Virus record (IMG/VR): IMGVR_UViG_2531839647_000001
Coordinates: 3,759-67,758 of that record
Reading direction: 5' to 3' (one strand)
Length of the DNA stretch: 64,000 nt
Source: a virus
Taxonomy: Duplodnaviria; Caudoviricetes
A program made the translations under genes and the position numbers. Below the pieces are notes generated by a model. It searched no databases. It worked only from the letters and a program-made list of their open reading frames with translations, and was not told the DNA's origin. Shown here piece by piece: positions 2,108-44,355 of the stretch. Numbering within the stretch: position 1 is the stretch's first letter; each line of letters opens with the position of its first letter.

Positions 2108-4059
2108 TAGATATTCTCCGCTTCCATTTTTTGTACTTGATTCAAGAGTTCTGTCACCGCTGGAATAAGAAGTGGATCATTTAAGTCTTTTTCTGCTTCA
2201 TCTCGAATTTGCTCTAATAACTCAAGATTAACTTTAACCTGCCCTTCAATTACTGAACGGTAAAGTTGATTACCTTCATCATTTGTCGTACTAGGCTGAA
2301 GATCTTCAACTTCTGTCGGAGCATTTAGTTCTTTAGATTCATCATTATCTGAATTTTGGGTTGGCTCTTTATTACTGAGGCGATCCGCTAAATGTTCATC
2401 TGCCCATGCTCTTGAATATTCATAAAATGCTGTTAAATATTCTTGTGAACCTTCGGCCCCATTCCAGTTTTTTAAGAATTCACTACGGCGATCTGAAACC
2501 CAAGCCATAAAGTCAATATTGTTAGAATCTTCAGGATTTTCCAAAGTGTCTAACCATGCTTGCATCATTTTGTTTTCAGCTATACCAGCTGCACGTGCTG
2601 CTAATACTTCTTCATCTCTTTTTTGGTTTTCTTCATTTTCAGCATCAATAAGTTTTTTTGCTTCTAATTCTGCTTGCTGTTGAGCCAAAGCCTGGTCATC
2701 TAGTTCAGAAATCCATTCACGTGCCCAAGCTACTGCATCAGAATCACCCTCTAGAGCCTTATTGATACGTTTAAAGAATGCTTGGTAACGTAAACCATCT
2801 TCACCTGCCCATTCAGGATCAGCATTTAAACGCTTTAAGTCGGCTTTTAAACGTTCGGCTTCTTCATCAGAAATACTATCTGGTAAATCATTATCGAGGT
2901 TATTCTCATTAATGATTCCTTCATTTTCTTCAGATTGATGTGTTAACAATGAATTTTGCAACTGATCCAATTCGTTTAATAAATTGGAAATTTCAGCACT
3001 TAAAGAATTCAATTGTCTTTGTTTTTGCTCGAGGCGTAGTTCAGCATCTGCTAATGCCTTGGCCTTTTCTGCTTTTTTAGATTGTAACCGCTTAAAACGA
3101 TTACTATTTTGGTTAATCAGCTTCATAATTCGACCAGCGAGCACTGGAATTGAAATTCCTTCTCCCTGATTAGGTTGAATGGCAGCTGTAATATCGCGAT
3201 TGTTCATTAAGATCTTCCATGAAATTAATGAATCTGCTGGGCTAATTTTTTTTGATAATCGATCTGGTTTATGAAAAAGGATTGTGAAGTTTTGGCCGTC
3301 ATCAAAATCATAAGTAAGGGCAATTTGAAGGACTTTTTTATGCTTAAAGGGCTTACTTTCCGTAACGTTAACGATTTTGACGCCAGTTTTTGAAAACTGT
3401 TCCATAGAGTGATGCAATATTGCAGACAGCTGCTCTAAATGCTGGTAATCAACAATAATAGAATCATAATGCGCTTCTTCTACACATAGACTAGATAAAA
3501 GCGTAGGTAACCCATCAAATTTACTTAATAATTGACTGTGATCATCATTTCGTTGCATATCTAATAACAACTTAGAAGTATCACCCTCATGAGAAGTTAA
3601 ATTGATTCCATCCCATTCAGGCTTTTCAGCTGCTACGACATTTTGTAATTGTTCTAGTTGCCATCTTTGAATCGGTTTTGAACCCGTCAAATTAAATTGT
3701 TTTGAAGATAAATGGCGTTTAAGTCCAAATTGATTTGTTTCAATAACATCTGTAACACATGCATCAAACATGCGGCCAAATTGCAGTATCGCTAAATCAG
3801 CTGCATGCTGGTCATCGATAGCGCCTAATACCGCAACGGAATCAAACGCATCCATCCCACTCTTTTTGCCTTTTAAATTTACAACACGCCAGAAATCATT
3901 TTCCGTGTAATCTTCAGTGACTAAAGCATTAATTTGACGGTAATCACCCTTAATAAACCCAATTGAACAAGCACCACTATTCACCATGGAGTCAAAACCA
4001 TGGACTAATCGGCTTTGATGTGGTGCGTGTGTTTGAATGAAAATTGATTTAACACTCAC
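2107..4059 (-). CDS. darA: DarA-related defence-against-restriction protein (DarA_N domain plus coiled coil)
   Basis: FDDGQNFTILFHKPD...LISWKILMNNRDITAAIQP...LAGRIMKLINQNSNRF resembles the P1 DarA N-terminal domain; coiled coil follows. Confidence 0.75.
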   Translation of the reverse strand: MSVKSIFIQTHAPHQSRLVHGFDSMVNSGACSIGFIKGDYRQINALVTEDYTENDFWRVVNLKGKKSGMDAFDSVAVLGAIDDQHAADLAILQFGRMFDACVTDVIETNQFGLKRHLSSKQFNLTGSKPIQRWQLEQLQNVVAAEKPEWDGINLTSHEGDTSKLLLDMQRNDDHSQLLSKFDGLPTLLSSLCVEEAHYDSIIVDYQHLEQLSAILHHSMEQFSKTGVKIVNVTESKPFKHKKVLQIALTYDFDDGQNFTILFHKPDRLSKKISPADSLISWKILMNNRDITAAIQPNQGEGISIPVLAGRIMKLINQNSNRFKRLQSKKAEKAKALADAELRLEQKQRQLNSLSAEISNLLNELDQLQNSLLTHQSEENEGIINENNLDNDLPDSISDEEAERLKADLKRLNADPEWAGEDGLRYQAFFKRINKALEGDSDAVAWAREWISELDDQALAQQQAELEAKKLIDAENEENQKRDEEVLAARAAGIAENKMMQAWLDTLENPEDSNNIDFMAWVSDRRSEFLKNWNGAEGSQEYLTAFYEYSRAWADEHLADRLSNKEPTQNSDNDESKELNAPTEVEDLQPSTTNDEGNQLYRSVIEGQVKVNLELLEQIRDEAEKDLNDPLLIPAVTELLNQVQKMEAENI

Positions 4060-4087
4060 GGAGTTATCCTCATTTTAATTTGAGGAT

Positions 4088-4128
4088 ATTTTCTCAATTA
4101 GGTGAATCTATAAAGCCAATGAGTTCCA
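4088..4128 (-). promoter_or_regulatory. Putative late promoter (TGGAAC-N30-AAAAT) for the darA-ddrB operon
   Basis: One of 13 fixed-spacing copies found in intergenic gaps. Confidence 0.75.
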
Positions 4129-4132
4129 TAGC

Positions 4133-4786
4133 TTATTTTAAGTTGGGAAACATTTTGATGAAATTTAAAGTAACAATGGCATGTGCTTTATTAGAGGCAT
4201 CAAGGGGCAAATTGCCTGCTTGAAGTGAAACTAGATGCTCAATTTCAAATTGGTTCTGATTTCTTGCAGCTTTATCAAAAGCATATATTTTTAATCTCAT
4301 TAAGTATTCAATTGGTAGCGATTGAGTACCATCTTTATTAAACATTATTTCTTTTATAGCTTTAGCACTATTCGCAATAGCCGCCTCTTTAGTCTCAATA
4401 AATGAAATGCTCAACTCATTTGAAGCATTGCCAGTTACATGGTTGAGTTGAAAGTGCCCCACATGCACTGCATCGGTTTGGGCATCTAGTAGTGATACAT
4501 CTACATTATTGGCTAACCAAGCAACTTTATTTGAAGGATCAAAAATTGGAATATTTGCTTGAGCAATTTTACTGTTTGCACGGTAAGGGCGAATTTCAAT
4601 TCCAAAATGGGCAGCAGAAAGTGTCCCTAATGCATAAAGTTCCTGATAATGTGAAACAGCTCGGTCAACAGTTAGACCAGACCACAAGACAGGATTCTTA
4701 GCAAAACGTTCTTTAAACGGATTTAAAACGTTTCCCAAACTGTTATTTATAGTTTTATTCTGTGTTTCGTAATCAAAAAAAGCCAT
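4133..4786 (-). CDS. Virion structural protein, possibly tail-tube-like or baseplate
   Basis: Coupled to the portal gene; beta-rich pattern (ELSISFIET...IVTLNF). Confidence 0.4.
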   Translation of the reverse strand: MAFFDYETQNKTINNSLGNVLNPFKERFAKNPVLWSGLTVDRAVSHYQELYALGTLSAAHFGIEIRPYRANSKIAQANIPIFDPSNKVAWLANNVDVSLLDAQTDAVHVGHFQLNHVTGNASNELSISFIETKEAAIANSAKAIKEIMFNKDGTQSLPIEYLMRLKIYAFDKAARNQNQFEIEHLVSLQAGNLPLDASNKAHAIVTLNFIKMFPNLK

Positions 4787-6321: not shown

Positions 6322-6351
6322 AACTAAGCCAAAATACCTAAATAATTAAGT

Positions 6352-6392
6352 ATTTTGATGGCTACCATTTTTTAACTTTTAGATGAGTTCCA
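6352..6392 (-). promoter_or_regulatory. Putative late promoter (TGGAAC-N30-AAAAT) for the portal operon
   Basis: gttcca at 6387-6392 and atttt at 6352-6356 on the + strand. Confidence 0.75.
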
Positions 6393-6400
6393 AAGTGAAT

Positions 6401-6441
6401 TGGAACCCTACAGATTTAATAAATCTGGAGCATGCAATTCT
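6401..6441 (+). promoter_or_regulatory. Putative late promoter (TGGAAC-N30-ATTCT) for the 64-aa gene, back to back with the portal promoter
   Basis: Only plus-strand copy; followed by the hairpin tctgaaca...tgttcaga overlapping the GAGGA RBS. Confidence 0.7.
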
Positions 6442-6480
6442 ATCTGAACATATTTTTTAATCTGTTCAGAGGAAAAGCTC

Positions 6481-6675
6481 ATGGCTGAAGTTAAAGTATT
6501 TAATGATTTAGATATCGAATTAGCTCAAAAAACCAAAGACATTGTAAATGCCCAACGTTTTAACAACCGCCCTGCTTTCAAAACATTAAACCTAGGCTGG
6601 GATCTTGAAACTGGTTCCATTGCAGTTAACTACACTTTTGTAGAAGAACCGCCAGTTAACGATCAGCCTGCTTAA
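6481..6675 (+). CDS. Small hypothetical late protein
   Basis: GAGGA RBS, its own late-promoter motif and a downstream terminator. Confidence 0.7.
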   Translation: MAEVKVFNDLDIELAQKTKDIVNAQRFNNRPAFKTLNLGWDLETGSIAVNYTFVEEPPVNDQPA

Positions 6676-6683
6676 CAGTTAAT

Positions 6684-20691: not shown

Positions 20692-20732
20692 AGGTTAAAA
20701 GGTTATATCTACTTAAAATTTGATTGGTTCCA
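20692..20732 (-). promoter_or_regulatory. Putative late promoter (TGGAAC-N30-AACCT) for the tube-hub-spike operon
   Basis: Fixed spacing; directly follows the terminator at 20734-20763. Confidence 0.75.
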
Positions 20733-20733
20733 T

Positions 20734-20763
20734 AAAAAAAGCCACCCTAAAAGGTAGCTTTTT
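20734..20763. terminator. Bidirectional terminator
   Basis: aaaaaaagccacc-ctaaaa-ggtagcttttt. Confidence 0.7.
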
Positions 20764-23230: not shown

Positions 23231-23271
23231 ATTTTGAGCCGTGGTTGTTTTTGATTTTCTGGCTAGTTCCA
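23231..23271 (-). promoter_or_regulatory. Putative late promoter (TGGAAC-N30-AAAAT) for the sheath operon
   Basis: gttcca at 23266-23271 and atttt at 23231-23235. Confidence 0.75.
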
Positions 23272-23275: not shown

Positions 23276-23302
23276 AAAAAAACCACTCGAAAGTGGTTTT
23301 TT
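23276..23302. terminator. Bidirectional terminator
   Basis: aaaaaaaccact-cgaa-agtggtttttt. Confidence 0.75.
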
Positions 23303-24218: not shown

Positions 24219-25997
24219 TTACGAATTTTTGAGGGATGGCATATTGATACAGTGGATGACATAGCTTTGATCAGCATAACGTTCTAACGGGTTCATTTCG
24301 GCTGCTTGAGCACCGATTAAAGTAAGTACTGATTCACGCGCGTCTGGTCGAGTTTCAATAACTGAAAGAGGAGTTTGAATAAAGCCAACGAACGGCGCAC
24401 GAATTGGCTCATTACCACGACCCACTAAAAGCATATCAAACGCTGTATCTGCTTCAGCTACAAGCTCTTGTGCTGACGGTGCGTGGTAAACGTTAGTACC
24501 ATCTGCAAGAGTACCAATACGGACAATTTGACCATAACCAGCAGTGTATCCTGTTTTAACTGGCATCTTATCGCTTGACAGTTGATTAAAGAATACTGAC
24601 CCAGTATCGCCAACATAAAGGTCAAATGCGACGGTAGAGCCACCTGTTCGTTGGTTAATATCCAATTTGGCCGCAGCAATAAACTTATTTACTTCAGCAA
24701 ACAAGTCACCAGATGTATTATATGCAGCTGCTAATTTACCAGTCACACCACGAGAAGCATCAAAAGTAACTTCACGGCCTGAGTATTCAGCTAAGTCTTT
24801 TGCTTCACCTAATAAACGTACAGTTTGTTCTAAGAAGATTTTTCCTTGAACAATTGCTAAAGCCTGACCTAGGAAACCAAGCTTAAGTTCGTTAGTTAGT
24901 TGAGATTGTAATAGTGTTGAAGCTGTTACCCGTGCCATGATTGGTGATGCCACCAAAGTTTCATATTCAGGTTCAAAATCAACACCAACTGGGGTTAATA
25001 GGTAGTTATTATTACCATCACGTGCGTCAAAATCAGCTACAAGATGAACTTCAACTTTTGCACCAGCTGGTAATGCTTCATTTAAGGTCACGCTAATTTT
25101 GCTAGCTGAAATATCAATTTCGCTACCAATTACACGATATTCAACGCCGTTTACTACTACGTCTTTCTCAGCAATAGCTGAAATTTTACCTGTAATCTTT
25201 GATTTTGTTCGGTTACGGGTATGTGCTACTTCTTTACCATTGATCTTGATAGATACATTACCAGCAATAAATGGCAATAAGCTCGCTTTGGCGTCAGGTG
25301 TTTTAGCTTTGAAGTCTTCATAACCAGTTCGAGCTGTTACAGAGTATGTCGCCCCAGCACCCCCATTGGATAGTGCATAACGGAAACGTCCCTCTACATA
25401 CGGCTTAGAAGCATTTGCACCATCTAAGTATTCTGATTTCTTCATTGCCCCAAAATCACGGTTGGTGATGAAGCGAATAGATACAATCGGGACTTCATTT
25501 GAACCATTCGAGTTGGGAATCATTGCAACGATAGGAGTTGCATAAGCGATAACGTTGGCGATAGTAGCAACTGTAATTGCTGGAACGATGCTTACAGATT
25601 CATGATGCTGGTGATTCACATCATCAAAACCAGATTCATTAATACTGTCGTAATAGCTAATAGTATCAGCAGGCAATGCAGCTGCTTGTTTTGCACCATT
25701 TAAACCAGCTGTTAAAGCCGCTGCAACAATTGATGGATGTGGTAGTTCACCGCCATGACGTGCTTGATATTGTGATACCCCAAACATCACAGCTTTATCA
25801 ACTTCTGGTGCATAATCCATGCCGATTGAATCAAAGATTTCTTTTAATACTTCTGGGTAATCTTCTGCAGCTGTTTGGGCACTATCAAACCCATTTTCAA
25901 GCTCATCAGGACTTTTGAAATAGTAATTTCGGCACTGAACAGTAGCTAGTTGTTGAGCATCATACTTTTTACGAATTTCGTCTGTTAACACAGTCAT
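24219..25997 (-). CDS. Major capsid protein precursor (P1 gp23-like)
   Basis: 592 aa; HGGELPHPS prodomain and QIVRIGTLADGTNVYH; own promoter and terminator. Confidence 0.75.
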   Translation of the reverse strand: MTVLTDEIRKKYDAQQLATVQCRNYYFKSPDELENGFDSAQTAAEDYPEVLKEIFDSIGMDYAPEVDKAVMFGVSQYQARHGGELPHPSIVAAALTAGLNGAKQAAALPADTISYYDSINESGFDDVNHQHHESVSIVPAITVATIANVIAYATPIVAMIPNSNGSNEVPIVSIRFITNRDFGAMKKSEYLDGANASKPYVEGRFRYALSNGGAGATYSVTARTGYEDFKAKTPDAKASLLPFIAGNVSIKINGKEVAHTRNRTKSKITGKISAIAEKDVVVNGVEYRVIGSEIDISASKISVTLNEALPAGAKVEVHLVADFDARDGNNNYLLTPVGVDFEPEYETLVASPIMARVTASTLLQSQLTNELKLGFLGQALAIVQGKIFLEQTVRLLGEAKDLAEYSGREVTFDASRGVTGKLAAAYNTSGDLFAEVNKFIAAAKLDINQRTGGSTVAFDLYVGDTGSVFFNQLSSDKMPVKTGYTAGYGQIVRIGTLADGTNVYHAPSAQELVAEADTAFDMLLVGRGNEPIRAPFVGFIQTPLSVIETRPDARESVLTLIGAQAAEMNPLERYADQSYVIHCINMPSLKNS

Positions 25998-26035: not shown

Positions 26036-26076
26036 AGTCTGACATGTGCTATTTTTACTAAAGCTGGTCGGTTCCA
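26036..26076 (-). promoter_or_regulatory. Putative late promoter (TGGAAC-N30-AGACT) for the capsid operon
   Basis: gttcca at 26071-26076 and agtct at 26036-26040. Confidence 0.75.
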
Positions 26077-26151
26077 AACGTAAAAAAGTCCCCAAAATTG
26101 AGGACAAAGAAAATGTAGCTAAAGGACCATCTCAGCCCTTTATTTATATAG

Positions 26152-28413: not shown

Positions 28414-29952
28414 TTAAGCTTTAACAGTACTTACACGCGCAAAGCCACCAATACCCGCTTTACCGCTGTTTCCGTTACTTTCAGTAGTGTGACCAGCTTC
28501 ACCAACAACTAAAGTCATATACTGAGTTTTTTCGGTTGAATTTACATATCGGCAAATGAGTAAACCACCACTTGCACCACCACCACCAAGTGCCCAGCCA
28601 TCATCTCCAACACCATTGGCACCATCACCACCAGCACCCCAGTTTGATACTGGACTTACTGATGCGCCGCCTTTGTGGTTAGTTTGGTTTGCAGCTGTAC
28701 CAGCAATACCTAATTTTCTTGAAAGTTCTGTAATACTGGATGTGATAGTGATTGTTCCAGCTAAACCGCCAGCACCATTTGAGAAAGCACTACCATTTGA
28801 CCACTGACCACTTGTACCGCCTTTACCGCCACCAACAACCGCCAAGTCGAGCTCATTTAAACGTAAGCGTGTATCTGTACCATGGGTCCCATGAGCCAAT
28901 GCTCCTAACTCCCATACACTGCCACCACCAGCCCCGCCAGCACCGACTAAAATGAATTCTTTTTGTTCTTTTGGTTGAATTGGAATGATATAAACACCTG
29001 GTACTGTGTAATCGCCGTTTCCATCGTTAAGTGTTTCTGCAGCTACCTGAATAACTGACCAATTCACAGTACCTGAATATCCAATACGGTTTTGACCTGA
29101 GCGCTCCCAAACTTCATATGAAAAACCTTTTTCCGCACGAGTAAGCTTCCAAGCTTCATGTGAGCTTTCGGGCGTTAGATGGATTGCATACTTTGAATCA
29201 CGTAAATCAGTAACTTTGCCACCTAATTCAATTGTCGCAGTGCTACCAATATTTACACCTGATCCAATCAATTTTGGATATTGAGCATCTAAGGTTTTCT
29301 TGAAATCGATTAACTGCTGTAACAAGTTTTTGGAACTAAGATCTAGATCATCAATCTGATGTTGTAAATCATCGTCTTTGGCTTTTACATCCTTCTCTAA
29401 TGCATATTGAGGATGAGGATCCTCATGCTGATTATGTTCAGTCATGAGCTTACGGATTAACGCACCGTATTGTGGGTGTGGGTCTTCATCTGCACTATGC
29501 TGATTCATCAACATCACAGCAATTGGGGTGTTTGGATCAATCTTGATAGTTACGTTTTTTAAATTAACGTCAGTTAAAACAAATCCAAATGTAACGATGG
29601 CTACTACGTTTGCATGTAAAGACATGATTGATTGAGCTTCTGTAGTTGAAGCTACCGCAAGCAAAGTACCATCTGATAGGTATATACCCATCTCAAACAC
29701 TTCCATTGTTAAAGTTGGCTCAATACTCATCACAAAACGCAAAGTACCAGTCTCAGTATCTACACCACCACCGTTAAGAGAAAATCTGGCTAATTCATTT
29801 TTAAGAGAAGTTAGGTTTTTCGCTTCTACTGATGCATCAAATTTGCTATTACCTACAGCAAGATGGGTTAACTCCCCACCAAAACTAGCAACATCACCTA
29901 CTTTATTTAATGCATTACGACCTGCGTCAGTCAAAAAGAAGTTAATAGCCAT
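28414..29952 (-). CDS. Side tail fibre (tail-collar-fibre N-terminus, DPHPQY repeats, Gly-rich C-terminus)
   Basis: LTDAGRNAL..THLAVG..EMGIYLSDGTLLAV; HxxxEDPHPQY twice; GAGGAGG repeats. Confidence 0.8.
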   Translation of the reverse strand: MAINFFLTDAGRNALNKVGDVASFGGELTHLAVGNSKFDASVEAKNLTSLKNELARFSLNGGGVDTETGTLRFVMSIEPTLTMEVFEMGIYLSDGTLLAVASTTEAQSIMSLHANVVAIVTFGFVLTDVNLKNVTIKIDPNTPIAVMLMNQHSADEDPHPQYGALIRKLMTEHNQHEDPHPQYALEKDVKAKDDDLQHQIDDLDLSSKNLLQQLIDFKKTLDAQYPKLIGSGVNIGSTATIELGGKVTDLRDSKYAIHLTPESSHEAWKLTRAEKGFSYEVWERSGQNRIGYSGTVNWSVIQVAAETLNDGNGDYTVPGVYIIPIQPKEQKEFILVGAGGAGGGSVWELGALAHGTHGTDTRLRLNELDLAVVGGGKGGTSGQWSNGSAFSNGAGGLAGTITITSSITELSRKLGIAGTAANQTNHKGGASVSPVSNWGAGGDGANGVGDDGWALGGGGASGGLLICRYVNSTEKTQYMTLVVGEAGHTTESNGNSGKAGIGGFARVSTVKA

Positions 29953-29978
29953 AACCCACCCATATGATTTATTGATCT

Positions 29979-30019
29979 ATGGTAGTTATGGCTATTAAGT
30001 AACTTAGGGGTCAGTTCCA
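29979..30019 (-). promoter_or_regulatory. Putative late promoter (TGGAAC-N30-ACCAT) for the tail-fibre operon
   Basis: gttcca at 30014-30019; -10 box TACCAT. Confidence 0.75.
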
Positions 30020-32760: not shown

Positions 32761-33568
32761 CTATACGCTCAACTGTAATTTCACCTGTTTCTCTGTCACC
32801 CTTCACACGTTGATGGTCGAGTGGCGTGTACTGATCAGCTTGCACTACAACTTTGTCGTTGATTGCGGGCTGTTCCGTTGCTGAGCCGTCAGGTTCATAC
32901 CCATTACCCGTGTTTTGATCGAAAGGACCACCGAAACCGATAACGTTAGGTGTGTAACCCACAAGCTGAATATCTACAGTTGAGATAGAAAGATTGACTG
33001 CTTCGCTAGGTACGGGTGATGGAAAAAGTTCATTTTCAAAAACAGTGAAAGTTGAATTAACAACATGTTCATTCCATTGCTGAAATGGCACATTAAAACG
33101 GCGGTTATCACTGCTAGACATATACGCGCAAAATTGCCCAATGACTGAACGTAGATCGTTAGGATTCGTTGCAAAGAATGCGATTTGAGCTCTTACAGTA
33201 GTTGGTACCAGACGAACTTTTACCCGCTTCTCATCAATGACCGTTTCAACAAAATCTGGCACTGGTAGTAATTGATTAATATCTGGGGGTTGATCTGTTA
33301 GCGCTGTTGCAGTGAGCATTACTGGTAAAAGTACTTTCGATTCTTCATCATGCTTTTGGCTTTTTCTATATTCAGAAAGCATAGCTTCTGAATCGTCCAT
33401 CATCCGTGACGGACATGCTTTAATAGCGTTGCCAATGGCTCTCAATTTCCAGTCAGCTGTTAATTGTGTTTCAGGCATATACCAAGCACGAAAATTGACA
33501 AGCTGCTTATACCAAGCGTTTTGAATGCATTTAAGCGAATCGTTGGGGTAATTCATTGTTACCCCCAC
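32753..33568 (-). CDS. Tail completion or terminator-like structural protein
   Basis: Late operon context; LPVMLT and TVRAQIAFF beta pattern. Confidence 0.35.
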   Translation of the reverse strand: MGVTMNYPNDSLKCIQNAWYKQLVNFRAWYMPETQLTADWKLRAIGNAIKACPSRMMDDSEAMLSEYRKSQKHDEESKVLLPVMLTATALTDQPPDINQLLPVPDFVETVIDEKRVKVRLVPTTVRAQIAFFATNPNDLRSVIGQFCAYMSSSDNRRFNVPFQQWNEHVVNSTFTVFENELFPSPVPSEAVNLSISTVDIQLVGYTPNVIGFGGPFDQNTGNGYEPDGSATEQPAINDKVVVQADQYTPLDHQRVKGDRETGEITVERIDD

Positions 33569-34464
33569 ACACTAAAAATACTGCCAAATGACTTTTTCGA
33601 CTTTTTTGGTTTCTCTTTTACACTTGGTTGATCCATGGATTGCAAAATTTGTTCAGCTTGTTGCTGAACTGAATCAAAGCTCATCACAGGATTTACCATT
33701 CCCGTATAGAGTTCTTTTTTGCGTTCTTCTCTTAGTTGTTGTACTCGTTTTTGCCTATCAACTACTTCTGATAATTCACCCACTAACCCTTGAGCATTTC
33801 CTAACTCGTTTAATAGATGCAGCTGACTATTGATATTGTCGTATGTCTGTAAAATTTGATCTTCAAGTAATTGAGCAATAATAATTTCGGGCTTTGATAA
33901 CTGGGAAATATCTGTTGCACTATCAAAGCAAGAAACAACGCCTTCAGGCTCTTCAGGTATGAATAAATCATCAAATAACTGACCATCCCCAACATTACTT
34001 GCAAAGTTAGGCAATAGGGCAAAATCGAATCCAAAAAAACCAGTTGGAATTAAGCGGCCACCAACATTTTTATAATTTACAGCTGTACTAAAGCCACCCG
34101 CTTGGGCTTTATACTGCTGTAAGGCAACCTCACCTGGTTCGTTTTCATAGAATTCTTCACGGTGTTCAACCGTACCATCTTTGAATGCACGTAATTCAAT
34201 TGTTTTAAATGCACTAACTAGATATACCAACTTCCCCTTAATAATGACTGTTTCTGGCGGTGCCATCCCGAAACGCTGCCGGATTTGATGACCGTAATAA
34301 CCTTGTAAAGAGTTAGTAGCCACCATTTCTTGAACATAGTCACTATTAATTAGATTGACCATTGCATCAACATCGACATTACTTCGATCAACACCGGTAT
34401 ATTTACGGCATCGATCATGTAGGTTGTAAGAGAGAACTTTAGTCTTTCTATTTTTGCTAGCCAT
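33559..34464 (-). CDS. Prohead (head-processing) protease, P1 Pro / T4 gp21 type
   Basis: GYYGH (His), GGFSTA (Ser) and GFDFALLPNF motifs in the order expected for prohead serine proteases. Confidence 0.7.
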   Translation of the reverse strand: MASKNRKTKVLSYNLHDRCRKYTGVDRSNVDVDAMVNLINSDYVQEMVATNSLQGYYGHQIRQRFGMAPPETVIIKGKLVYLVSAFKTIELRAFKDGTVEHREEFYENEPGEVALQQYKAQAGGFSTAVNYKNVGGRLIPTGFFGFDFALLPNFASNVGDGQLFDDLFIPEEPEGVVSCFDSATDISQLSKPEIIIAQLLEDQILQTYDNINSQLHLLNELGNAQGLVGELSEVVDRQKRVQQLREERKKELYTGMVNPVMSFDSVQQQAEQILQSMDQPSVKEKPKKSKKSFGSIFSVWG

Positions 34465-34494
34465 AAAAAAAGCCCCAATGCTATGATTGAGGCT

Positions 34495-34535
34495 ATTGTT
34501 TCAGTTGTTCTACAGTTGAAATTTAATCAGTTCCA
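34495..34535 (-). promoter_or_regulatory. Putative late promoter (TGGAAC-N30-ACAAT) for the protease-terL operon
   Basis: gttcca at 34530-34535 and attgt at 34495-34499. Confidence 0.75.
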
Positions 34536-34776: not shown

Positions 34777-35235
34777 TTATTTTTCAAGTGTGCCTTCAAC
34801 ACCACGAGCACGGCGCTCTGCAGTACGCTTATTAAATTCTTCTAGCGCACTTTCCATATCAATAATGGCTTGTTTATTGAATTCGCTTGGGAATTTTTCA
34901 TCTAAAGTTTTAGTACGGTGAATAAGTACTTTTAATAATGCTTCACTGGTAACCCCATTCACACCATGTTCTGGAATTGGGCCATCCTGAAAATGAAGAC
35001 TGATTTCAAAATCTTTTGCGTTCTGAGTTTCTGGATTTGCTGAAATCTTATAGTAATGGCCCTGAGCATAAGCTGTAATGCCTTCAACCACTTCCCCATT
35101 AACAACTTTATCAATTTCTTGTGATTCTAATTCTCGGTTTGCGTAACCTAAGAAATGATCAATTAATAGGTTTTCTCCTTGATCATTGATTGGTTCTGCG
35201 ATTCCTACTAAAACATTGTCTTGAGCTTGTTGCAT
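34777..35235 (-). CDS. tad1: Tad1-like nucleotide-signal sponge (anti-Thoeris/anti-CBASS)
   Basis: HYYKI...LHFQDGP..HGVNGVTSEALL..LIHR....FPSEFN..A...E.AL....KRTAERRARGVEGT matches the Tad1 family pattern as recalled. Confidence 0.8.
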   Translation of the reverse strand: MQQAQDNVLVGIAEPINDQGENLLIDHFLGYANRELESQEIDKVVNGEVVEGITAYAQGHYYKISANPETQNAKDFEISLHFQDGPIPEHGVNGVTSEALLKVLIHRTKTLDEKFPSEFNKQAIIDMESALEEFNKRTAERRARGVEGTLEK

Positions 35236-35267
35236 ATAAAAAAAGTCCTGAACTAATGAACAGGACT

Positions 35268-35308
35268 ATGAAATCATTTTGTATTTGTGTACTAACTCAA
35301 CAGTTCCA
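35268..35308 (-). promoter_or_regulatory. Putative late promoter (TGGAAC-N30-TTCAT, weak -10) for tad1
   Basis: gttcca at 35303-35308; the -10 pentamer lacks the conserved A. Confidence 0.6.
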
Positions 35309-37371: not shown

Positions 37372-37681
37372 CTGTTACTGATTTACCCAATCGATCTGCT
37401 ACTTGGTTAAGATCTATATTCACATTCATGATGTTTAGATGAATATGAACCGTCTCAAAACCTTCGGTTTGTGAATACAGTGCTAATTGGTCAGAGTTAA
37501 GCTCAGATAATATTGGTAGATCTTTTTTCATCTTAATTAGAAAACTATCTGCAACCCTTGAGTCCAAAGGTGCCATTAGCAAATCATAAAGAGGTGCACC
37601 AAAATCTGAACCATACTTTCCATTGACCGGATGATTAAGCCAGTACTCAACCATGTCTAAAATTGTTTTAGATGTGATCAT
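37343..37681 (-). CDS. Baseplate gp25/gpW-like protein
   Basis: WLNHPVNGKYGSDFGAPLYDLL. Confidence 0.6.
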   Translation of the reverse strand: MITSKTILDMVEYWLNHPVNGKYGSDFGAPLYDLLMAPLDSRVADSFLIKMKKDLPILSELNSDQLALYSQTEGFETVHIHLNIMNVNIDLNQVADRLGKSVTGETYDINAS

Positions 37682-38037
37682 TAAGAAGTTGCTCTATTAC
37701 TGAAAATCATCATAAGCTTTACTAGTATTGCGGTGCCAATCTGGTAAGTTGAAAAAATAGTGAAATAGATAATGAATATCCAAAATGAAACGCTTAAAGC
37801 ATCAAAATAAGAAGCAACGTAATAGATTCGCCAATCAACAAGAAGAATAGTGACCAATACACATGCCATGCTTATGAAATACATATATCTAATTTCTTTA
37901 AATAAGCGGCTTATAGGCAAATGGCGTAATTGTTTTATAGATGTCGCTTTATTCTTACTATTCCATCCAGTTATAACTGAAAGATAAGCTAAAAACGCCA
38001 GAATTAAGACAATATCGATACCGATCTGAATTTGCAT
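37681..38037 (-). CDS. Three-TM membrane protein (holin candidate)
   Basis: Start moved to ATG 38037 (MQIQIG) because the late promoter lies at 38067-38107; three hydrophobic segments. Confidence 0.45.
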   Translation of the reverse strand: MQIQIGIDIVLILAFLAYLSVITGWNSKNKATSIKQLRHLPISRLFKEIRYMYFISMACVLVTILLVDWRIYYVASYFDALSVSFWIFIIYFTIFSTYQIGTAILVKLMMIFSNRATS

Positions 38038-38066
38038 AAAAAACACCCTTAATAAAAACTGTATTA

Positions 38067-38107
38067 AGGGTATTGCTTTTATAATTATGTAAGCGGGAAT
38101 GGTTCCA
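38067..38107 (-). promoter_or_regulatory. Putative late promoter (TGGAAC-N30-ACCCT) for the baseplate operon
   Basis: gttcca at 38102-38107; -10 box TACCCT. Confidence 0.75.
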
Positions 38108-38236
38108 GATTTGAAAATAAGAAATGCATGGATTATTATATATACAAAGCCCGCTCCACTTATGACACGAGAACGTATAGGGTCATAAGTGTAGGTTAGA
38201 AGATGTCGCAACCCATCTCTAACTATCGGGCTTTTT

Positions 38237-39178
38237 TTAATACACTTCAAAAGCTGTTAATAACCACGCATTACCACCTTCCCGCTTAATCAAAGAAGCT
38301 TCATGTGAATTAAAAACAATATTAATTCGTGTTGATAATCCACGTTCTGTTCGCCGTTGTGTACTTCCTTGAGCAATTGTCTCCACAATATTATCTACTA
38401 ACATATGTACAACATCTTCATATGTCATGCCGTCACTTTCCATACGGCGCTTGATAATATGCTTAATGCCCTGTTTATCGCTGCCATATTCAAAATCCAC
38501 CCAGCCTAGATCATTGCGATACATAGCTCTATGAACTGTGGTTTTTTCCATAATGGCTTTGTTCATCGCAGCTTTACCACGTGTGATATTTGCTGTAACT
38601 GATTTGATTGGACTCGCGCTATCAAATTCAGGCTTTCCCGATTCGGATTGACCAGCCTCCGAACTTATACCTAGTTGTTGCTTAGCATGTTCAATTTGTT
38701 CCTTCAGTTGGTCACGCTGAGCTGTTTGTTTTGCTAAATCTTCATCTAGCTTTTGTTCTTGTTCTTGTACTTCTTTAATTTTCTGATCTACAGAAGTACG
38801 GCGCGGCGGCAAACTAACTTTTTCCCGTTTATTTTGTTCTTGTATCTTAGATTGTGCTTCACGAATAAGCTTAGCTACCCCAGCCACGGCGTTTTCAAAT
38901 GTTGGCTTATAGTCATCACTAAAATCGCCTGATAGCACAATTACTTTGTCATTCAGTTCGGCCTTGACCACATCTGCTAAAGCTCGAACATAAAGCGTAA
39001 GTATTGCACCACCAGAAAAGAATAAAGCTACTGGTAAAACACTAACACCAGCAACGCGCTTAATTTTGCGAAACTCAGGTGTGACAATAGTTTGCCCTGT
39101 TGCCTTTTCTAATGCAGATTGGATCTTTTTAATATATGGAGTAGTAGCTGTTACAGCTGCAAGATTAAGACTGCCCAT
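38237..39178 (-). CDS. Hdf/DarA_N-like domain, coiled coil and C-terminal PBECR-like (Barnase/EndoU/ColicinE5/RelE fold) nuclease
   Basis: N-terminal KRVAGVSVLPVALFFSGG; C-terminal MYRNDLGWVDFEYG...GIKHIIKRR...AWLLTAFE; start moved to ATG 39178. Confidence 0.65.
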   Translation of the reverse strand: MGSLNLAAVTATTPYIKKIQSALEKATGQTIVTPEFRKIKRVAGVSVLPVALFFSGGAILTLYVRALADVVKAELNDKVIVLSGDFSDDYKPTFENAVAGVAKLIREAQSKIQEQNKREKVSLPPRRTSVDQKIKEVQEQEQKLDEDLAKQTAQRDQLKEQIEHAKQQLGISSEAGQSESGKPEFDSASPIKSVTANITRGKAAMNKAIMEKTTVHRAMYRNDLGWVDFEYGSDKQGIKHIIKRRMESDGMTYEDVVHMLVDNIVETIAQGSTQRRTERGLSTRINIVFNSHEASLIKREGGNAWLLTAFEVY

Positions 39179-39205
39179 GAAAAATAACCTCATTAATATG
39201 AGATT

Positions 39206-39246
39206 ATTTTGCAATTTATCTAATCAGTGATAAGAAAGTGGTTCCA
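39206..39246 (-). promoter_or_regulatory. Putative late promoter (TGGAAC-N30-AAAAT) for the Hdf-PBECR gene
   Basis: gttcca at 39241-39246 and atttt at 39206-39210. Confidence 0.75.
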
Positions 39247-39342
39247 TAAAAAATTTTAAATCATGTTTAAAAATTATTTATATTGAAATCTTTATTAACT
39301 TCTAAGAATATCCTAAATAAATTGAATGTTTGGAATTTATGA

Positions 39343-41064
39343 ATGCTACAAATTTGTACAGGAAAACTTTATACCCGAGAAATTGAATATCGAAATAATT
39401 TAAAAGGGATTATTTATACAAATTTAAAATTATTTCGTGATGAAAAAATTCAGACTAAAGCAGGCACAATACTATCTGTTGAAAATGCAGAAGGTCCAAA
39501 TACTGTTATCTATGAAATAGAAGAACTAGTTGAAGAAACTGAAAGTAAACCAGGAGTTCTAATTTCTCATGGGATTAGTTATTTAATTTTAGACTTTTCT
39601 ACAATTCTTTCCTTTACTTTAAATTGTACAGCTTCACCTAGTCATTCACTTACGGAACGATTGCTAAGCGATGAACGAGGGGTTTCTACTCATACATCAC
39701 CAAGTAAAATGATTAAAACCGTTTTTGACAAAAATATTTTCTGCCAAGAAGAAGATCAAAAATTTTTTATAAGCTTCACTAATCATTTAATTGGACTAGA
39801 ACGTAAAACGTTTTTAGGTGTAATGAGTTCAATTCGAACATATGTTACAGGCATGCATCGAATCGCCGATGATTTTGAATTAGCCTACACTCTACTCGTT
39901 GCATCAATTGAATCTCTTGCACAAAATTTCGATGGTCACCAATCAACTTGGGAAGATTTCGATCAGCTTAAAAAAAAGAAAATTGATGAAGCATTAAATG
40001 GATGTGAAACTGAAATTGCTCTAAGAGTTAGGGAGGCAATATTAAGTTTAGAGCATACCTCTTTAAGAAAAAGATTCGAAGCATTTGCACTTGAACATGT
40101 ATCTCCTTCTTATTTTAGGGAGGATGCTGATTTTGTACTAAATCCTATTGCTAAATTAGATTTACCGACAGCCCTTTCAAATGCTTATCAAGCTAGATCA
40201 AAATATGTGCACAATTTAATAAAATTACCAAAGCAATTAATCTTTGCTGAATATTCTGAAACGTGTTCAATAAACGATAAAAAATGGCTTACCCTCCAAG
40301 GGTTATCGAGACTTGCAAGGCATGTAATTATCGAATTTGTTATGAAACAAAAAATTATTGAAAAAGAACCATACGATTATTCTTTAGAACGATCTAATAT
40401 TTTACAAGTGCATTTAGCACCTCAATATTGGATTGCATATCCTGACTTTAGCATAGGTGCTGGGATTCAAAAGCTGGAAGGGTTTCTTTCTCAGCTAAAA
40501 GAATGTTTAACAAATGTTCCTGATGCGAGTGTAACTGACTTATCAAACGTTTTAGACGAATTTGAATCTAAAATTGATACATTAAAGCAAGCAGATAAAC
40601 ATGCTTTTCTAGCTTTATACATAATTTATAACGCATATTTGAATAAAACATATGAAGACCATGAACAACGTATAAAAAAAGCAAGAAGATTTATTAAGAA
40701 ACATCAAAAAAAGATTTCAAATCCTTGCGTTGAAGGTCTTATAGTTAACAGTTTGCTAATACTTGATATTCAATGGGATATTGAAGAACATGAAAAATAC
40801 TTACAACAATATTTTAAAGATAGAGATAAAAAATTAAAAATAAGATGTCCAGATATATTTGAATCAGGAATGATTCTTCAATTAGCTGAACGTTATCGAA
40901 AAGATGGTAATCAGATAAAGGCAATTGAACTAATTGAAATGGCCGTTGAAAACCTACCTTCTCACAAAGAACTACGCAATTTTGAAAACGAATATAAAAA
41001 ATCTCCAAAAAAAATTGATAGTAAGGAAATATTATTCCCAATCATTGAGGAAAAAAGCCCATAA
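39343..41064 (+). CDS. HEPN-domain (ApeA-like) putative anti-phage protein, moron
   Basis: AYTLLVASIESLA...AYQARSKYVH (RxxxxH); AT-rich, opposite strand, own terminator. Confidence 0.65.
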   Translation: MLQICTGKLYTREIEYRNNLKGIIYTNLKLFRDEKIQTKAGTILSVENAEGPNTVIYEIEELVEETESKPGVLISHGISYLILDFSTILSFTLNCTASPSHSLTERLLSDERGVSTHTSPSKMIKTVFDKNIFCQEEDQKFFISFTNHLIGLERKTFLGVMSSIRTYVTGMHRIADDFELAYTLLVASIESLAQNFDGHQSTWEDFDQLKKKKIDEALNGCETEIALRVREAILSLEHTSLRKRFEAFALEHVSPSYFREDADFVLNPIAKLDLPTALSNAYQARSKYVHNLIKLPKQLIFAEYSETCSINDKKWLTLQGLSRLARHVIIEFVMKQKIIEKEPYDYSLERSNILQVHLAPQYWIAYPDFSIGAGIQKLEGFLSQLKECLTNVPDASVTDLSNVLDEFESKIDTLKQADKHAFLALYIIYNAYLNKTYEDHEQRIKKARRFIKKHQKKISNPCVEGLIVNSLLILDIQWDIEEHEKYLQQYFKDRDKKLKIRCPDIFESGMILQLAERYRKDGNQIKAIELIEMAVENLPSHKELRNFENEYKKSPKKIDSKEILFPIIEEKSP

Positions 41065-41073
41065 AATTAAGTA

Positions 41074-41114: not shown

Positions 41115-41209
41115 AAGTAACGGAGAGCTCTTTATAATCTTTTAAGAAATGGGATTATAATCAACTAGGTTCATTTCCTGATCTGCACTCTTGTATATCT
41201 TATAATTCT

Positions 41210-42034: not shown

Positions 42035-42041
42035 TAATAAA

Positions 42042-44285
42042 CTAACCTTCTAAGTTTCCCATTCCTATTCCACCAGTTAAAGCATGGGCTAGGTATCTAT
42101 CATTTACATTCTGACCGATATTACCATTATTTCCATTAACAACAACGACTTCCTGAGGATTTGGTGTATTAAGTGGCTGTTTAAAGGCTGGTATTTTTGT
42201 TATAGGAATACTTTTTAAGCTAGTTACATTTGAGCTTTGATCCCTGTTTGAAGTTGGTATATGTGGAGTTCTAGAGCTCAGTACGCCTGAGAGTTTTCTA
42301 CTTGTTTGGTTATAGATATTCTCCTGCTTTTGCTCAACCTTAGAAGCGCTCTTTACTGTTTTAGCTTCAATATCTTTTAACGTTTTAGAGTTATCTTGCT
42401 TATCTGTGAGTAGTGATCTTTTACCAGCATCAACATGGATATTTTGTGCCATTGCAGAACGTTTCATAGCTTCAGCTTCAGCTGCTGCTGGTCGCTCATA
42501 ATATCGAGAAATAATAGCGCCAGCTTGATTAGCGGTTTTAGATTGTCTTAACTTTTTACCTGCAGATGATTCATTGTTATTTAATTCCCAGTTAACAAAA
42601 GCTAATTGTTCTTGATATGAGGATTGACGAATATCTTTACCAAACTTTTGTTTAAATTTAGCTTGTCTATCAGGATGCCATTGACCAATTCCAAAAGCTT
42701 TACCACTATCACCTATAGCCGTATGTTTAAAGCCACTTTCAGCTTCAAGATTCGCAACTATTCCAGCAGCTTGTTCAGATGTCCAATTTCCCCCTTCCTT
42801 GCTTGTGAAAAACTTTAATGCCTCATCTCTAGCAGATGATCTATTAACAGGTTGTGCAATAGTGGCACCATATTGTGCTACACCAGCATTTGCACCAAAA
42901 CCCAGCTTATAAACGCCTTGGCCGATGCCCCATGTTGGAACACCGTCATGGAATGGATTAAATCGGTTAAATTTATCCTTAATGAAATCTAAAGTATCGC
43001 CAGTAGTATCTTTAACTCCGTCTACAACTTTTGAAGCTGTACCTTTCGCCTGTTCGAAAGCATTAGACGCATAACTTAAAAATCCTTTCCATGCACTATT
43101 AATAATACCTGGTACATCTGCAGCTATTAAAGAATCTGTCCACTCTTTGAAATACGGCGCAACTACGGTTCCTAGCTTATTCCCAATCCAAGAACCAGTC
43201 ATGCCCCCAATTAATGTACCAGCTGGACCAAATAAAGAACCGACAGTACCACCAATTACTCCACCTGCAAGACTACCAACTGTACCGCCCTTTTCTTGTG
43301 TGCTTTGTTCATTCCAATCTAACAATGATGCTCCAGCAGCCAGTGCACCAATTACGGGTAGTCCACGGCCAAACTTAAGAAGTTTACCCAAGCCCTTTCC
43401 TAATTTCCCTACACCTTTCTTTCCTTTGCCTAGAGCACCACCTAGAAGCCCACCACCAGCAGATAACACGGAAGTAAGTAATTTCCCTAGAGAACTTAAT
43501 AAACCGCCTCTAGCAGCTAAATTATCGGCAATTCGCTGCAATAACTTTATTTGTTTACGGTTATGGCTCTCATGCTCTCTTGGTAATGGTTCATTACGTT
43601 TTTTACTACGCATCAATCCAGTTAATGGCCGCAAGGCTAAACCAGCAGCACGGCGTACAGGTGAAAGTAAGTGACCAACTTCATTGATTGCATCAACTGT
43701 AGGATCTACACCTTGCGGTGAGTTCGGCATTACACCCTTTACCGCCGTGGTAATTGTTTGTGCAACTTTGCTAATAGCGGATTGGTTTTTAACATCATCT
43801 TGATTAGAAACAAAACGTCCGTTCTCATCACGTTCTGGTGTAGATGAGCTTACGACCTTATTCAAATCTTCATGGCTATTAATCTCTATAGCTGGCTTTC
43901 GTGCCTTAGGTCGGTTGATTTGTTCTTTATTTGCTGAATTAAGGTCACTAACCGATTGCTCCAATACATCTGCAAAGTCTTTCACCAACTTATCGGCTAC
44001 AACAAAAGACTGCGTGATAGGATTTGCTTTTTCTTTTAATAAATCTTCAAAGTCTAGAGCTTGTCTATTATTGACAGCATTTAGCATCTTTTGAAATTCA
44101 GTAAGTTTTGGCTGAGGCTTAGCTAACTGTGTTTTTTGCTCTTCAAAGCTTTGAGTAAGAATATCTATGATTCTTTCAATATTTGAATCAATCGCACTTA
44201 CTTTTTTTTCAACTCGTTTCATCCCGATGATGAAGCCCAGCTCATCGTATGATAAAACTGGATTATTGTGATTTGAATCTGCCAT
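42042..44285 (-). CDS. Tape-measure-like protein with a phage tail lysozyme domain
   Basis: Gly-rich hydrophobic segment; QAAGIVANLEAESGF...AFGIGQWH..R...QLAFVNWEL...YERP. Confidence 0.75.
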   Translation of the reverse strand: MADSNHNNPVLSYDELGFIIGMKRVEKKVSAIDSNIERIIDILTQSFEEQKTQLAKPQPKLTEFQKMLNAVNNRQALDFEDLLKEKANPITQSFVVADKLVKDFADVLEQSVSDLNSANKEQINRPKARKPAIEINSHEDLNKVVSSSTPERDENGRFVSNQDDVKNQSAISKVAQTITTAVKGVMPNSPQGVDPTVDAINEVGHLLSPVRRAAGLALRPLTGLMRSKKRNEPLPREHESHNRKQIKLLQRIADNLAARGGLLSSLGKLLTSVLSAGGGLLGGALGKGKKGVGKLGKGLGKLLKFGRGLPVIGALAAGASLLDWNEQSTQEKGGTVGSLAGGVIGGTVGSLFGPAGTLIGGMTGSWIGNKLGTVVAPYFKEWTDSLIAADVPGIINSAWKGFLSYASNAFEQAKGTASKVVDGVKDTTGDTLDFIKDKFNRFNPFHDGVPTWGIGQGVYKLGFGANAGVAQYGATIAQPVNRSSARDEALKFFTSKEGGNWTSEQAAGIVANLEAESGFKHTAIGDSGKAFGIGQWHPDRQAKFKQKFGKDIRQSSYQEQLAFVNWELNNNESSAGKKLRQSKTANQAGAIISRYYERPAAAEAEAMKRSAMAQNIHVDAGKRSLLTDKQDNSKTLKDIEAKTVKSASKVEQKQENIYNQTSRKLSGVLSSRTPHIPTSNRDQSSNVTSLKSIPITKIPAFKQPLNTPNPQEVVVVNGNNGNIGQNVNDRYLAHALTGGIGMGNLEG

Positions 44286-44314
44286 AACAAAAATGCCCCA
44301 TTTTGATATAGGGC

Positions 44315-44355
44315 ATTTTGGATAATTTTTTTATATAAAATCCTATGAAGTTCCT
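44315..44355 (-). promoter_or_regulatory. Putative late promoter (AGGAAC-N30-AAAAT) for the tape-measure operon
   Basis: gttcct at 44350-44355 and atttt at 44315-44319. Confidence 0.7.

Follow-up and report, generated by a model that had tools for sequence, protein, structure and literature searches.

In bacteriophage T4, genes e, soc, 49, and I-TevI are described as having helices that sequester the ribosome-binding site (RBS), and their late transcripts, which start inside the structure and cannot form the helix, are translated (PMC3014915). Another described arrangement is the promoter-early stem-loop (PeSL) of the T4-type phages RB49, phi1, PST, and nt-1, a repeated intergenic promoter cassette of ~100 bp (PMC2839356; PMC4122927). 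Its stem-loop lies between the promoter boxes or over the -10 box, with the Shine-Dalgarno (SD) sequence and start codon at the 3' end (PMC2839356). According to these accounts, lacZ assays showed that transcription from upstream is terminated or attenuated at the stem-loop, and the cassettes lie at mosaic junctions and have a role in modular shuffling (PMC2839356; PMC4122927). Here we analyze a 64-kb stretch of DNA, the window (positions 3759-67758 of the 67,758-bp virus record IMGVR_UViG_2531839647_000001, below G000), whose source is a temperate myovirus of Acinetobacter. Of the 15 late-promoter cassettes of this genome, 10 have a -10-like box in the 5' arm of a hairpin, and this hairpin has the SD sequence of the first gene in its 3' arm. 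As judged from the sequence, this late cassette probably insulates each operon from upstream, in both transcription and translation, the box serving as an anti-SD 5' arm that the operon's own RNA would escape.

The arrangement resembles that of the T4 genes in that the SD sequence and start codon are paired on RNA initiated upstream, here according to predicted folds. It differs in that it is found at 10 of 15 late cassettes and not, as in T4, at a few special genes, in that the -10-like box itself would be the anti-SD sequence, in that six of the hairpins are also like intrinsic terminators, and in that the phage is temperate; the start sites here, and the effect of the hairpin on translation, are predicted ones. 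The gp55 late promoter of T4 is TATAAATA, whereas the promoter here consists of GGAAC and a distal box. The PeSL cassettes are as close a precedent as T4 e and soc. They share with the present cassettes (15 in number, with 66 to 80 nt from the first G to the start codon) the repeated intergenic position, the conserved promoter motif, and the SD sequence and start codon at the 3' end, as well as a stem-loop, which here covers the -10-like box in 10 of 15 cassettes, is followed by a U-run in 6, lies between GGAAC and the box in a relative (L078), and is predicted to terminate. However, PeSLs are described as consensus sigma-70 early promoters flanking accessory ORFans, whereas the cassettes here serve late structural operons and have no sigma-70 -35/-10 pair, and pairing of the stem-loop with the SD sequence is not among the features given in the parts of the PeSL reports drawn on here.

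The late promoters of Mu (C/Mor), P2 (Ogr), and P1 (Lpa) have a -10 box without a usable -35 and an upstream site for a small activator, and serve several late operons. A -10 box with an upstream element is likewise repeated at several late operons here, but the upstream element consists of one asymmetric heptamer, placed about 34 bp from the box. No relatives of Mor/C, Ogr, or Lpa were found among the proteins scanned (PHROGs, Pfam), and we know of no coupling of a hairpin to the RBS in those phages, which were not searched one by one. The lambdoid PR'-tR'/Q system also has a promoter with a close terminator and a -10-like element near the start (described in part in PMC7547250). It has one late promoter per genome, with the terminator well downstream of the mapped start, compared with 15 cassettes here, where no Q family was found in 66 (PHROGs) or 40 (Pfam) proteins and the -10-like box is the only -10 candidate.

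RESULTS

Hairpins at the late promoters

A sequence-only reading of this DNA had proposed that inverted repeats at about nine promoters, most of the late ones, join the -10 region to the RBS and form a lock against read-through expression. All 18 arms were found in the places given, eight repeats being on the - strand and that of the gene at 6481 on the + strand, its coding strand, and a hairpin is present at 9 of the 13 GGAAC promoters in the window. At all nine, a -10-like element lies in or beside the 5' arm and the RBS in the 3' arm. Each 5' arm holds or abuts a conserved TA at positions 40-41, counted from the first G of GGAAC, and each 3' arm has an SD-like purine-rich run (GAGGA, AGGT, GGGTGGG, GGGG, AGGA, AAGGG, GAGG, and GGGG; at 6481, only AGA of AGAGGAA). 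A tenth hairpin of the same build (m35) lies 35 nt to the left of the window, at G000 3723.

As RNA, the nine hairpin regions fold with energies of -10.3 to -15.7 kcal/mol. When compared with 200 dinucleotide shuffles per region, their z-scores are -2.26 to -5.50, with 0 to 4 of 200 shuffles folding as well. The cassettes, named after their gene or position, are as follows (window coordinates, z-scores from this comparison, start meaning the predicted transcription start).

4123..4127, - strand: GGAAC element of the darA operon, first G (G1) at 4127
4065..4088, - strand: darA hairpin TATCCTCA..TGAGGATA, z -4.27
4083-4088, - strand: darA box TATCCT, forming the 5' arm, with SD GAGGA in the 3' arm and no U-run; predicted start near 4076; GTG at 4059
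6387..6391, - strand: GGAAC element of the portal operon, back to back with the + strand GGAAC at 6402-6406
6331..6356, - strand: portal hairpin AAAATACTTA..TAGGTATTTT, TACTTA in the 5' arm; predicted start near 6340; ATG at 6321; z -4.32
6402..6406, + strand: GGAAC element of the 64-amino-acid (aa) gene 6481..6675
6443..6470, + strand: 6481 hairpin TCTGAACA..TGTTCAGA, ahead of SD AGAGGAA and ATG 6481; TA at 40-41 from G1; predicted start near 6453, in the loop; z -2.79
20727..20731, - strand: tail-tube GGAAC element, no straddling hairpin, -10 not placeable
20738..20761, - strand: canonical terminator, stem of 10 and U-run, ending 6 nt upstream of GGAAC 20731
23266..23270, - strand: sheath GGAAC element, TACTTA at 40-45, no RBS hairpin
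23277..23302, - strand: canonical, bidirectional-looking terminator immediately upstream of GGAAC 23270
26071..26075, - strand: GGAAC element of gene 24219..25997, TA at 25-26, longer leader
26088..26105, - strand: canonical terminator GTCCTCAATTTTGGGGAC with T6, upstream of GGAAC 26075
30014..30018, - strand: tail-fibre GGAAC element
29949..29991, - strand: fibre hairpin CCATAACTACCATA..TATGGGTGGGTTATGG, conserved box TAGATC at the 3' end of the 5' arm; predicted start near 29967; ATG at 29952; z -2.26
34530..34534, - strand: GGAAC element of gene 33559..34464
34465..34494, - strand: 34534 hairpin AGCCTCAAT..ATTGGGGCT with U7, then ATG 34464; terminator-like, TAGCCT in the 5' arm; predicted start near 34483; z -3.53
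35303..35307, - strand: GGAAC element of gene 34777..35235
35236..35267, - strand: 35307 hairpin AGTCCTG..CAGGACT with U7; predicted start near 35256; ATG at 35235; z -3.58
38102..38106, - strand: GGAAC element of the gene starting at ATG 38037, TA 5 nt closer, at 35-36
38038..38074, - strand: 38106 hairpin (AAT)ACCCTTAATA..TATTAAGGGT(GTT) with U6; predicted start near 38060; z -5.14
39241..39245, - strand: GGAAC element of the Hdf-like gene
39179..39210, - strand: hdf hairpin AAAATAATCTCAT..ATGAGGTTATTTT, then TC and ATG (39178); predicted start near 39194; z -5.50
44350..44354, - strand: tape-measure (A)GGAAC element
44286..44319, - strand: tape-measure (tmp) hairpin AAAATGCCC(TAT)..(ATG)GGGCATTTT with UGUU, then ATG 44285; predicted start near 44303; z -3.65
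47456..47460, - strand: GGAAC element ahead of the RusA-like gene (ATG 47388), neither hairpin nor upstream terminator, ATA at 36-38

The pairing is specific to these promoters. As a measure of specificity, we took the duplex energy between ATG-45..-19 and ATG-20..+3, with z-scores from 1,000 shuffles of the upstream piece. A strong duplex (<= -11.7 kcal/mol, z <= -1.9) was present at 9 of 14 - strand cassette starts (Fisher-combined P of 3e-11). Among the other 51 starts in the window, 6 reached an energy of -11.5 kcal/mol or lower and 6 a z-score of -1.9 or lower (combined P of 0.26); the enrichment of 9/14 over 6/51 gives a Fisher exact P of 1.9e-4. An initial test of RBS accessibility, in which the whole upstream part was shuffled, had given weak single-site z-scores of -1 to -2.3, because the region -14..+3 includes unpaired U-runs, and was replaced by the duplex test.

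The SD sequence and start region are paired in the minimum free energy and centroid folds of the nine hairpin regions, and on long leaders, beginning 30 nt before GGAAC, the unpaired probability of -14..+3 is 0.12 to 0.45. The sequence-only reading had expected that leaders truncated at the start would be open, and truncation does free the RBS in the folds of all nine - strand hairpin cassettes (long/truncated, 0.33/0.61, 0.34/0.52, 0.45/0.70, 0.22/0.48, 0.13/0.34, 0.33/0.68, 0.24/0.64, 0.14/0.38, and 0.12/0.46). The difference is absent at the hairpin-less 20731, 23270, and 47460.

The GGAAC element and its spacing

The sequence-only reading had missed an element that lies upstream of every one of the hairpins, a conserved tTGGAACy. 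It is followed by 33 unconserved bases, aAATAnCC, and the start codon 66 to 80 nt from the first G. The total of 15 cassettes in the 67.8-kb genome comprises the standard ones together with those of the tape-measure gene (ATG for ATA), 38106 (gap of 28), 26075 and 20731 (TA nearer), 47460 (gap of 30), and the + strand 6402. GGAAC-N33-ATA occurs 10 times on the - strand of the genome, one of these sites (18984) being intragenic and maybe due to chance and two lying left of the window; other gaps between 15 and 44 mostly occur 0 to 3 times, with 6 occurrences for gap 18 and 5 for gap 41. TGGAAC by itself is only weakly over-represented (40 versus 27.9 +/- 4.9); the signal is in the spacing. Information in the 11 cassettes with standard spacing is confined to T-1, GGAAC (1-5), T6, A36, and A39 T40 A41, with weak c43 and c44. 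The cassettes are absent among the sigma-70-like matches of a consensus promoter scan, and an Rfam search of the window returned no family. No description of tTGGAACy-N33-aAATA or of such an arrangement was found in the literature searched, which is not proof of absence; within that literature it is a previously undescribed late-promoter motif, and it would help to annotate Acinetobacter prophages and to find their late activator.

Relatives were collected from IMG/VR for the surroundings of three genes, baseplate (71 loci), sheath (80 loci), and portal (80 loci). Among them, GGAAC and the block formed by aAATAnCC and the hairpin are fixed, and the ~30 nt in between are hypervariable, essentially unrelated at hdf and tmp, while keeping their length to within 1 nt. 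At hdf, tmp, and darA, relatives have in common neither the spacer nor the sequence to the left of GGAAC, but they do share GGAAC, the GGAAC-to-box distance, and the hairpin together with its gene. Mosaic breakpoints appear to fall inside cassettes (39181-39245 and 44290-44354; loci L002-L072), a pattern resembling the shuffling proposed for PeSL cassettes. At 6387-6406, two cassettes stand back to back, GTTCCAAAGTGAATTGGAAC being a near-palindrome of two GGAAC elements that serve the portal operon on the - strand and the 64-aa gene on the + strand.

The -10-like box and the predicted start

In 55 non-redundant spacer variants from relatives, differing by at least 6 nt, a TA starts at position 40 in 33 and at position 35 in 11. 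Any other position from 6 to 49 has TA in at most 17 of the 55, and positions 21-27, the sigma-70 -10 distance if GGAAC were a -35 element, have it in 1 to 11, without a peak. Hence, the box at 40-45 is the only -10 candidate. GGAAC as an extracytoplasmic function (ECF)-type or sigma-70 -35 element was rejected, there being no -10 signal at the right distance, and a sigma-54 promoter (GG-N10-GC) was rejected by eye.

The box seems to be a DNA element and not just part of a stem, because it is conserved where unpaired. TAGC at 40-43 is invariant in nine orthologous cassettes, including those of Faucicola and Moraxella boevrei, where it is unpaired in the loop, and a hairpin-less relative (L077) keeps CATAATAA at the same place in three cassettes. 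Taking T40 as -12, we infer from the motif a start at position 52 (T40+12), which would put GGAAC at about -51 to -47 and leave a leader of 15 to 23 nt. This start would lie in the hairpin loop in 9 of 15 cassettes (m35, darA, portal, 34534, 35307, 38106, hdf, tmp, and 6402) and, in the fibre cassette, 2 nt into the 3' arm. Some distant relatives have their 5' arm entirely before the box (positions 22-32, 23-39, 28-36, and 18-34), leaving both the box and the predicted start in the loop. What stays constant is therefore a 3' arm lying on the RBS, together with a 5' arm that precedes the predicted start.

Published start sites and RNA runs were also consulted. Six hairpin strings were not in the transcription start site (TSS) table of Acinetobacter baumannii ATCC 17978 (PMC6182133) or the AB5075 supplementary file (PMC11472050), bar two chance matches of one 9-mer; a few TSS-upstream rows of the 17978 table start with GAAC or GGAAC, at ordinary genes and no more than expected by chance. 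The 24 RNA runs consist of assembled contigs, which show no strand, 5' ends, or level; those examined (X1, X4, X5, and X14) derive from ~90% relatives. Contig ends fall near 34456/34469, 35264, and 38095 in relatives and are not readable as starts, ends, or read-through. In X4, the Hdf-like gene and the 5' portion of the tape-measure gene (37450-39440 and 43430-45400) have word depths of 200 to 590, compared with ~5 to 45 elsewhere in the late region, which may reflect lysogenic expression of the antirestriction region, in contigs that carry neither strand nor ends.

Conservation of the hairpins

Of 123 distinct ortholog variants, 114 retain a duplex of -10 kcal/mol or lower (darA, 11/12; portal, 13/17; fibre, 17/17; 34534, 11/11; 35307, 18/18; 38106, 11/12; hdf, 19/22; and tmp, 14/14). 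The 26075 family has such a duplex in 0 of 11 variants and the sheath family in 0 of 18. Covariation had been suggested as a check on the hairpins, and they are indeed kept with compensatory changes at hdf, tmp, darA, and 34534. In the alignments of close relatives, 95.3% of 258 cells are paired for hdf and 99.4% of 156 for tmp, each with one pair changed on both sides. A compensatory darA variant (L228) has TAATCTCA/TGAGGTTA in place of TATCCTCA/TGAGGATA.

More distant loci were reached with a profile of the 33559..34464 protein (26 homologues), which found nine genome loci, down to 37% identity (A. puyangensis, A. boissieri, A. lwoffii, A. chengduensis, Faucicola, and Moraxella boevrei), where a single-protein scan had given one. 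The 34534 hairpin, aligned over seven sequences of 37 to 95% protein identity, has 98.4% of 62 cells paired (27 to 68% in slid controls) and three pairs changed on both sides, a number reached by 5 of 500 shuffles. In eight distant loci, 12 of 31 candidate cassettes, some of them surely false, have z-scores of -2.0 or lower, several at non-homologous genes, and the hairpins are seen again in prophages of Faucicola and Moraxella. For 8 of the 10 hairpins (all but darA and fibre), folding is better for the sense than for the antisense strand, and in the hdf and tmp alignments G-U outnumbers A-C by 30 to 1 (cells that are not independent of one another).

Terminator character and placement

U-runs had been noticed after some of the hairpins, and they are commoner at these promoters: 6 of 13 cassette genes, compared with 2 of 51 others (P of 5e-4), have a T-run of at least 5 within the 12 nt that precede the start codon. 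Six straddling hairpins, ending at positions 62-65, are terminator-like (m35, 34534, 35307, 38106, hdf, and tmp). A simple rule (stem of at least 5, free energy of -5 kcal/mol or lower, and 4 to 5 T in 6) admits all four upstream hairpins and six of the 10 straddling ones; the darA, portal, fibre, and 6481 hairpins fail.

The upstream hairpins belong to the cassettes without a straddling hairpin, and the sequence-only reading had missed these ordinary terminators as well. At m1881, 20731, 23270, and 26075, a canonical terminator ends 5 to 14 nt before GGAAC, while none of the 10 straddling-hairpin cassettes has one upstream (Fisher P of 0.0037); 47460 has neither. In relatives, the terminator can lie between GGAAC and the box (twice in L078) or upstream (the hairpin-less L077). 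This either/or placement is the strongest internal argument for a terminator or insulator function of the straddling hairpins; it also argues for a transcription start downstream of the 5' arm. The terminator pattern thus points to insulation from incoming transcription.

DISCUSSION

The proposed mechanism is as follows. A cassette of ~70 nt would drive each late operon, with tTGGAACy, at about -51 to -47, as the putative site of a phage late activator. In 10 of 15 cassettes, the downstream half of the -10 box (CCT...) would be recruited as an anti-SD sequence and serve as a 5' arm; the hairpin, with 7 to 18 predicted pairs, would have the SD sequence of the first gene as its 3' arm and, in six cases, a U-run behind it. 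RNA arriving from upstream would contain both arms and be stopped at the hairpin and U-run, and any that reads through would have its RBS shut. In contrast, RNA from the cassette's own promoter would begin in the loop, lack the 5' arm, and have neither a terminator nor a closed RBS. We infer that such incoming RNA exists; it may be early read-through, as the sequence-only reading supposed, but could equally be RNA of the preceding late operon. As to the lock that this reading proposed, its geometry and sequence-level predictions have held, while the position of the start is a prediction from the motif.

If the starts fall where predicted, this would be a compact rule by which some fifteen late operons stay free of influence from upstream transcription, each being silent unless its own promoter fires, without a need for separate terminators or repressors. 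It would unite the late promoter that bypasses an RBS hairpin with the promoter/terminator cassette, two ideas so far known one without the other and from lytic phages of the T4 type only, and the present cassette would offer a natural, portable insulator part for synthetic operons. More tentatively, a whole lineage of temperate myoviruses of the Moraxellaceae might share one self-insulating late cassette of ~70 nt, in which a single DNA stretch serves as -10 element, 5' arm of a terminator, and anti-SD sequence, and initiation in the loop disarms both blocks. In this extended form, the cassettes would be breakpoints for the swapping of late modules, a late counterpart of PeSLs, and phages without the straddling form would put the terminator before GGAAC or between GGAAC and the box.

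Several observations weigh against insulation by the cassette. The argument rests wholly on reading TAnnnn at 40-45 as a -10 element, and as such the box is imperfect: TACTTA, TAGTCC, and TAGATC lack the final T, and the tape-measure family has TG for TA. Nor is the GGAAC spacing uniform (28 at 38106 and 18 to 20 at 26075, perhaps also at 20731), and an offset of a half turn or 1.5 turns is awkward for the geometry of a single activator. No late activator, sigma factor, or antiterminator family was found in PHROGs (41 + 25 proteins), Pfam (40), or NCBIfam (11). Five of the 15 cassettes (m1881, 20731, 23270, 26075, and 47460) and 19 of the 31 candidate cassettes in distant loci have no RBS hairpin, and CCT/AGG complementarity would be partly automatic from a C-rich box 15 nt from an SD sequence. 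U-runs are missing at darA, fibre, and 6481, and a stricter terminator scan flags two of nine straddling hairpins. Covariation in close relatives is thin, 183 of 500 shuffles for hdf and 77 of 500 for tmp reaching the pair count, which is not significant. Finally, one relative's RNA contig spans the tape-measure hairpin, in data that show neither strand nor level.

The hairpins might alternatively be plain intrinsic terminators of the preceding operon that overlap the next promoter because intergenic space is short, with the cover of the SD sequence as a by-product of a C-rich box 15 nt from a G-rich SD sequence and no selected lock. The U-runs at 6 of 10 straddling hairpins and the ordinary terminators that the other four cassettes carry in the equivalent place would fit this explanation, as would the position of GGAAC, often directly after an upstream stop codon (4127 after 4133, 30018 after 30025, and 44354 after 44369). 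T4-type PeSL stem-loops, moreover, are described as overlapping the -10 box and terminating (PMC2839356). However, the darA, fibre, and 6481 hairpins have no U-run and yet are equally supported and conserved, and the 3' arm is always on the SD sequence, in stems of 7 to 18 predicted pairs that extend past the CCT/AGG core and differ in sequence. At 34534, furthermore, 240 nt upstream are free intergenic space, and the cassette nevertheless carries its hairpin within the promoter. We consider plain terminators rather unlikely.

It is quite improbable, in our view, that transcription starts upstream of the hairpin, with GGAAC as a -35-like element and RNA from position ~35, so that every late mRNA would carry the whole hairpin. 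The terminator would then be overcome by a Q-like antiterminator that loads at the promoter, or the hairpin would act as a 5' stabilizer or translational throttle. The lambdoid PR' promoter has a sigma-dependent pause element, and TAnCCT would act likewise under this scenario. The hairpin does begin at a roughly fixed distance from GGAAC (position 36-41 in eight cassettes) and is terminator-like, TA lies 18 to 20 nt from GGAAC, near -35/-10 spacing, at 26075 and perhaps 20731, and a helix-turn-helix (HTH) protein encoded after the RusA-like gene sits where lambdoid phages keep Q, which is a positional lead only. In contrast, the 55 non-redundant spacers have no -10-like signal at 21-27, some having none at all, and the box is conserved where unpaired. 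Some 5' arms begin well before ~35, at 7 (26075), 18 (L079_15907), 22 (L078), 23 (L080), 27 (fibre), and 28 (L081_14189), such that RNA starting there would be without those arms too. In addition, no antiterminator family was found in the proteins scanned (PHROGs, 66; Pfam, 40), and abundant structural mRNAs would have a shut RBS.

A role of the inverted repeats at the DNA level, whether as protein operators, cruciforms aiding promoter opening, or recombination junctions, in place of one in RNA, is hardly credible: mosaic breakpoints do seem to fall inside the cassettes at hdf, tmp, and darA with fixed flanks, and PeSLs are proposed recombination sites (PMC2839356), but the arm sequences differ among cassettes and so offer no common protein site, coding-strand G-U is tolerated and its mirror A-C is not (30 to 1), the 3' arm tracks the SD sequence with U-runs on the coding strand only, and a recombination role, which could coexist with one in RNA, does not explain the stems.

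Genome context

The window matches the phage vB_AbaM_ABMM1 over a 20.4-kb stretch at 93.1% identity (43% of the query covered) and A. baumannii records at 91.5 to 92%. The - strand carries almost all genes, from ~57.7 kb down to 0.6 kb, and the late operons are all codirectional. Its blocks comprise replication genes; the RusA-like and HTH genes; tape measure, Hdf-like, and baseplate genes; a head block with the large terminase; fibre, sheath, and tube; and a 3,499-aa tail protein, portal, and DarA-/DdrB-like genes. The cassettes serve structural genes (PHROGs). Of the gene names given in the sequence-only reading, DarA (DarA_N), Hdf-like, portal, tail fibre, and tape measure are supported by PHROGs and Pfam, whereas its "protease" (33559..34464) and "tad1" (34777..35235) belong to PHROG families of unknown function without a Pfam match.

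Between the replication block and the late region, at 47573-49063 on the + strand and opposed to all neighboring phage genes, lies a gene for a 496-aa protein with an N-terminal TIR/SEFIR domain (Pfam TIR_2, 2.6e-17; SEFIR, 1.7e-14), probably a defense moron. The gene also bars RNA of the early operon from running directly on into the RusA-like operon. Directly following the RusA-like gene, 46012-46698 (- strand) encodes a 228-aa XRE-type HTH protein, the best positional candidate for the late activator. A 281-aa protein encoded at 45153-45998 (- strand), far from the large terminase at 30025-32016, is perhaps the small terminase, to which it is similar by language-model neighbors only (score of 0.93). 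The 3,499-aa protein is a single open reading frame (ORF) at 8160-18659 (- strand), of unusual size for a 68-kb phage, with matches to phrog_5911, phrog_11, and phrog_5499 (tail protein, baseplate spike, and host range) and the tail-tube gene in the same operon.

The longest ORFs at 37681-38250 and 38237-39214 overcall their starts, since the PHROG matches begin at residue 72 and residue 13, respectively; accordingly, translation really starts at ATG 38037 and at ATG 39178, both immediately 3' of a cassette hairpin. The tube gene, likewise, probably starts at ATG 20658 and not at TTG 20673.

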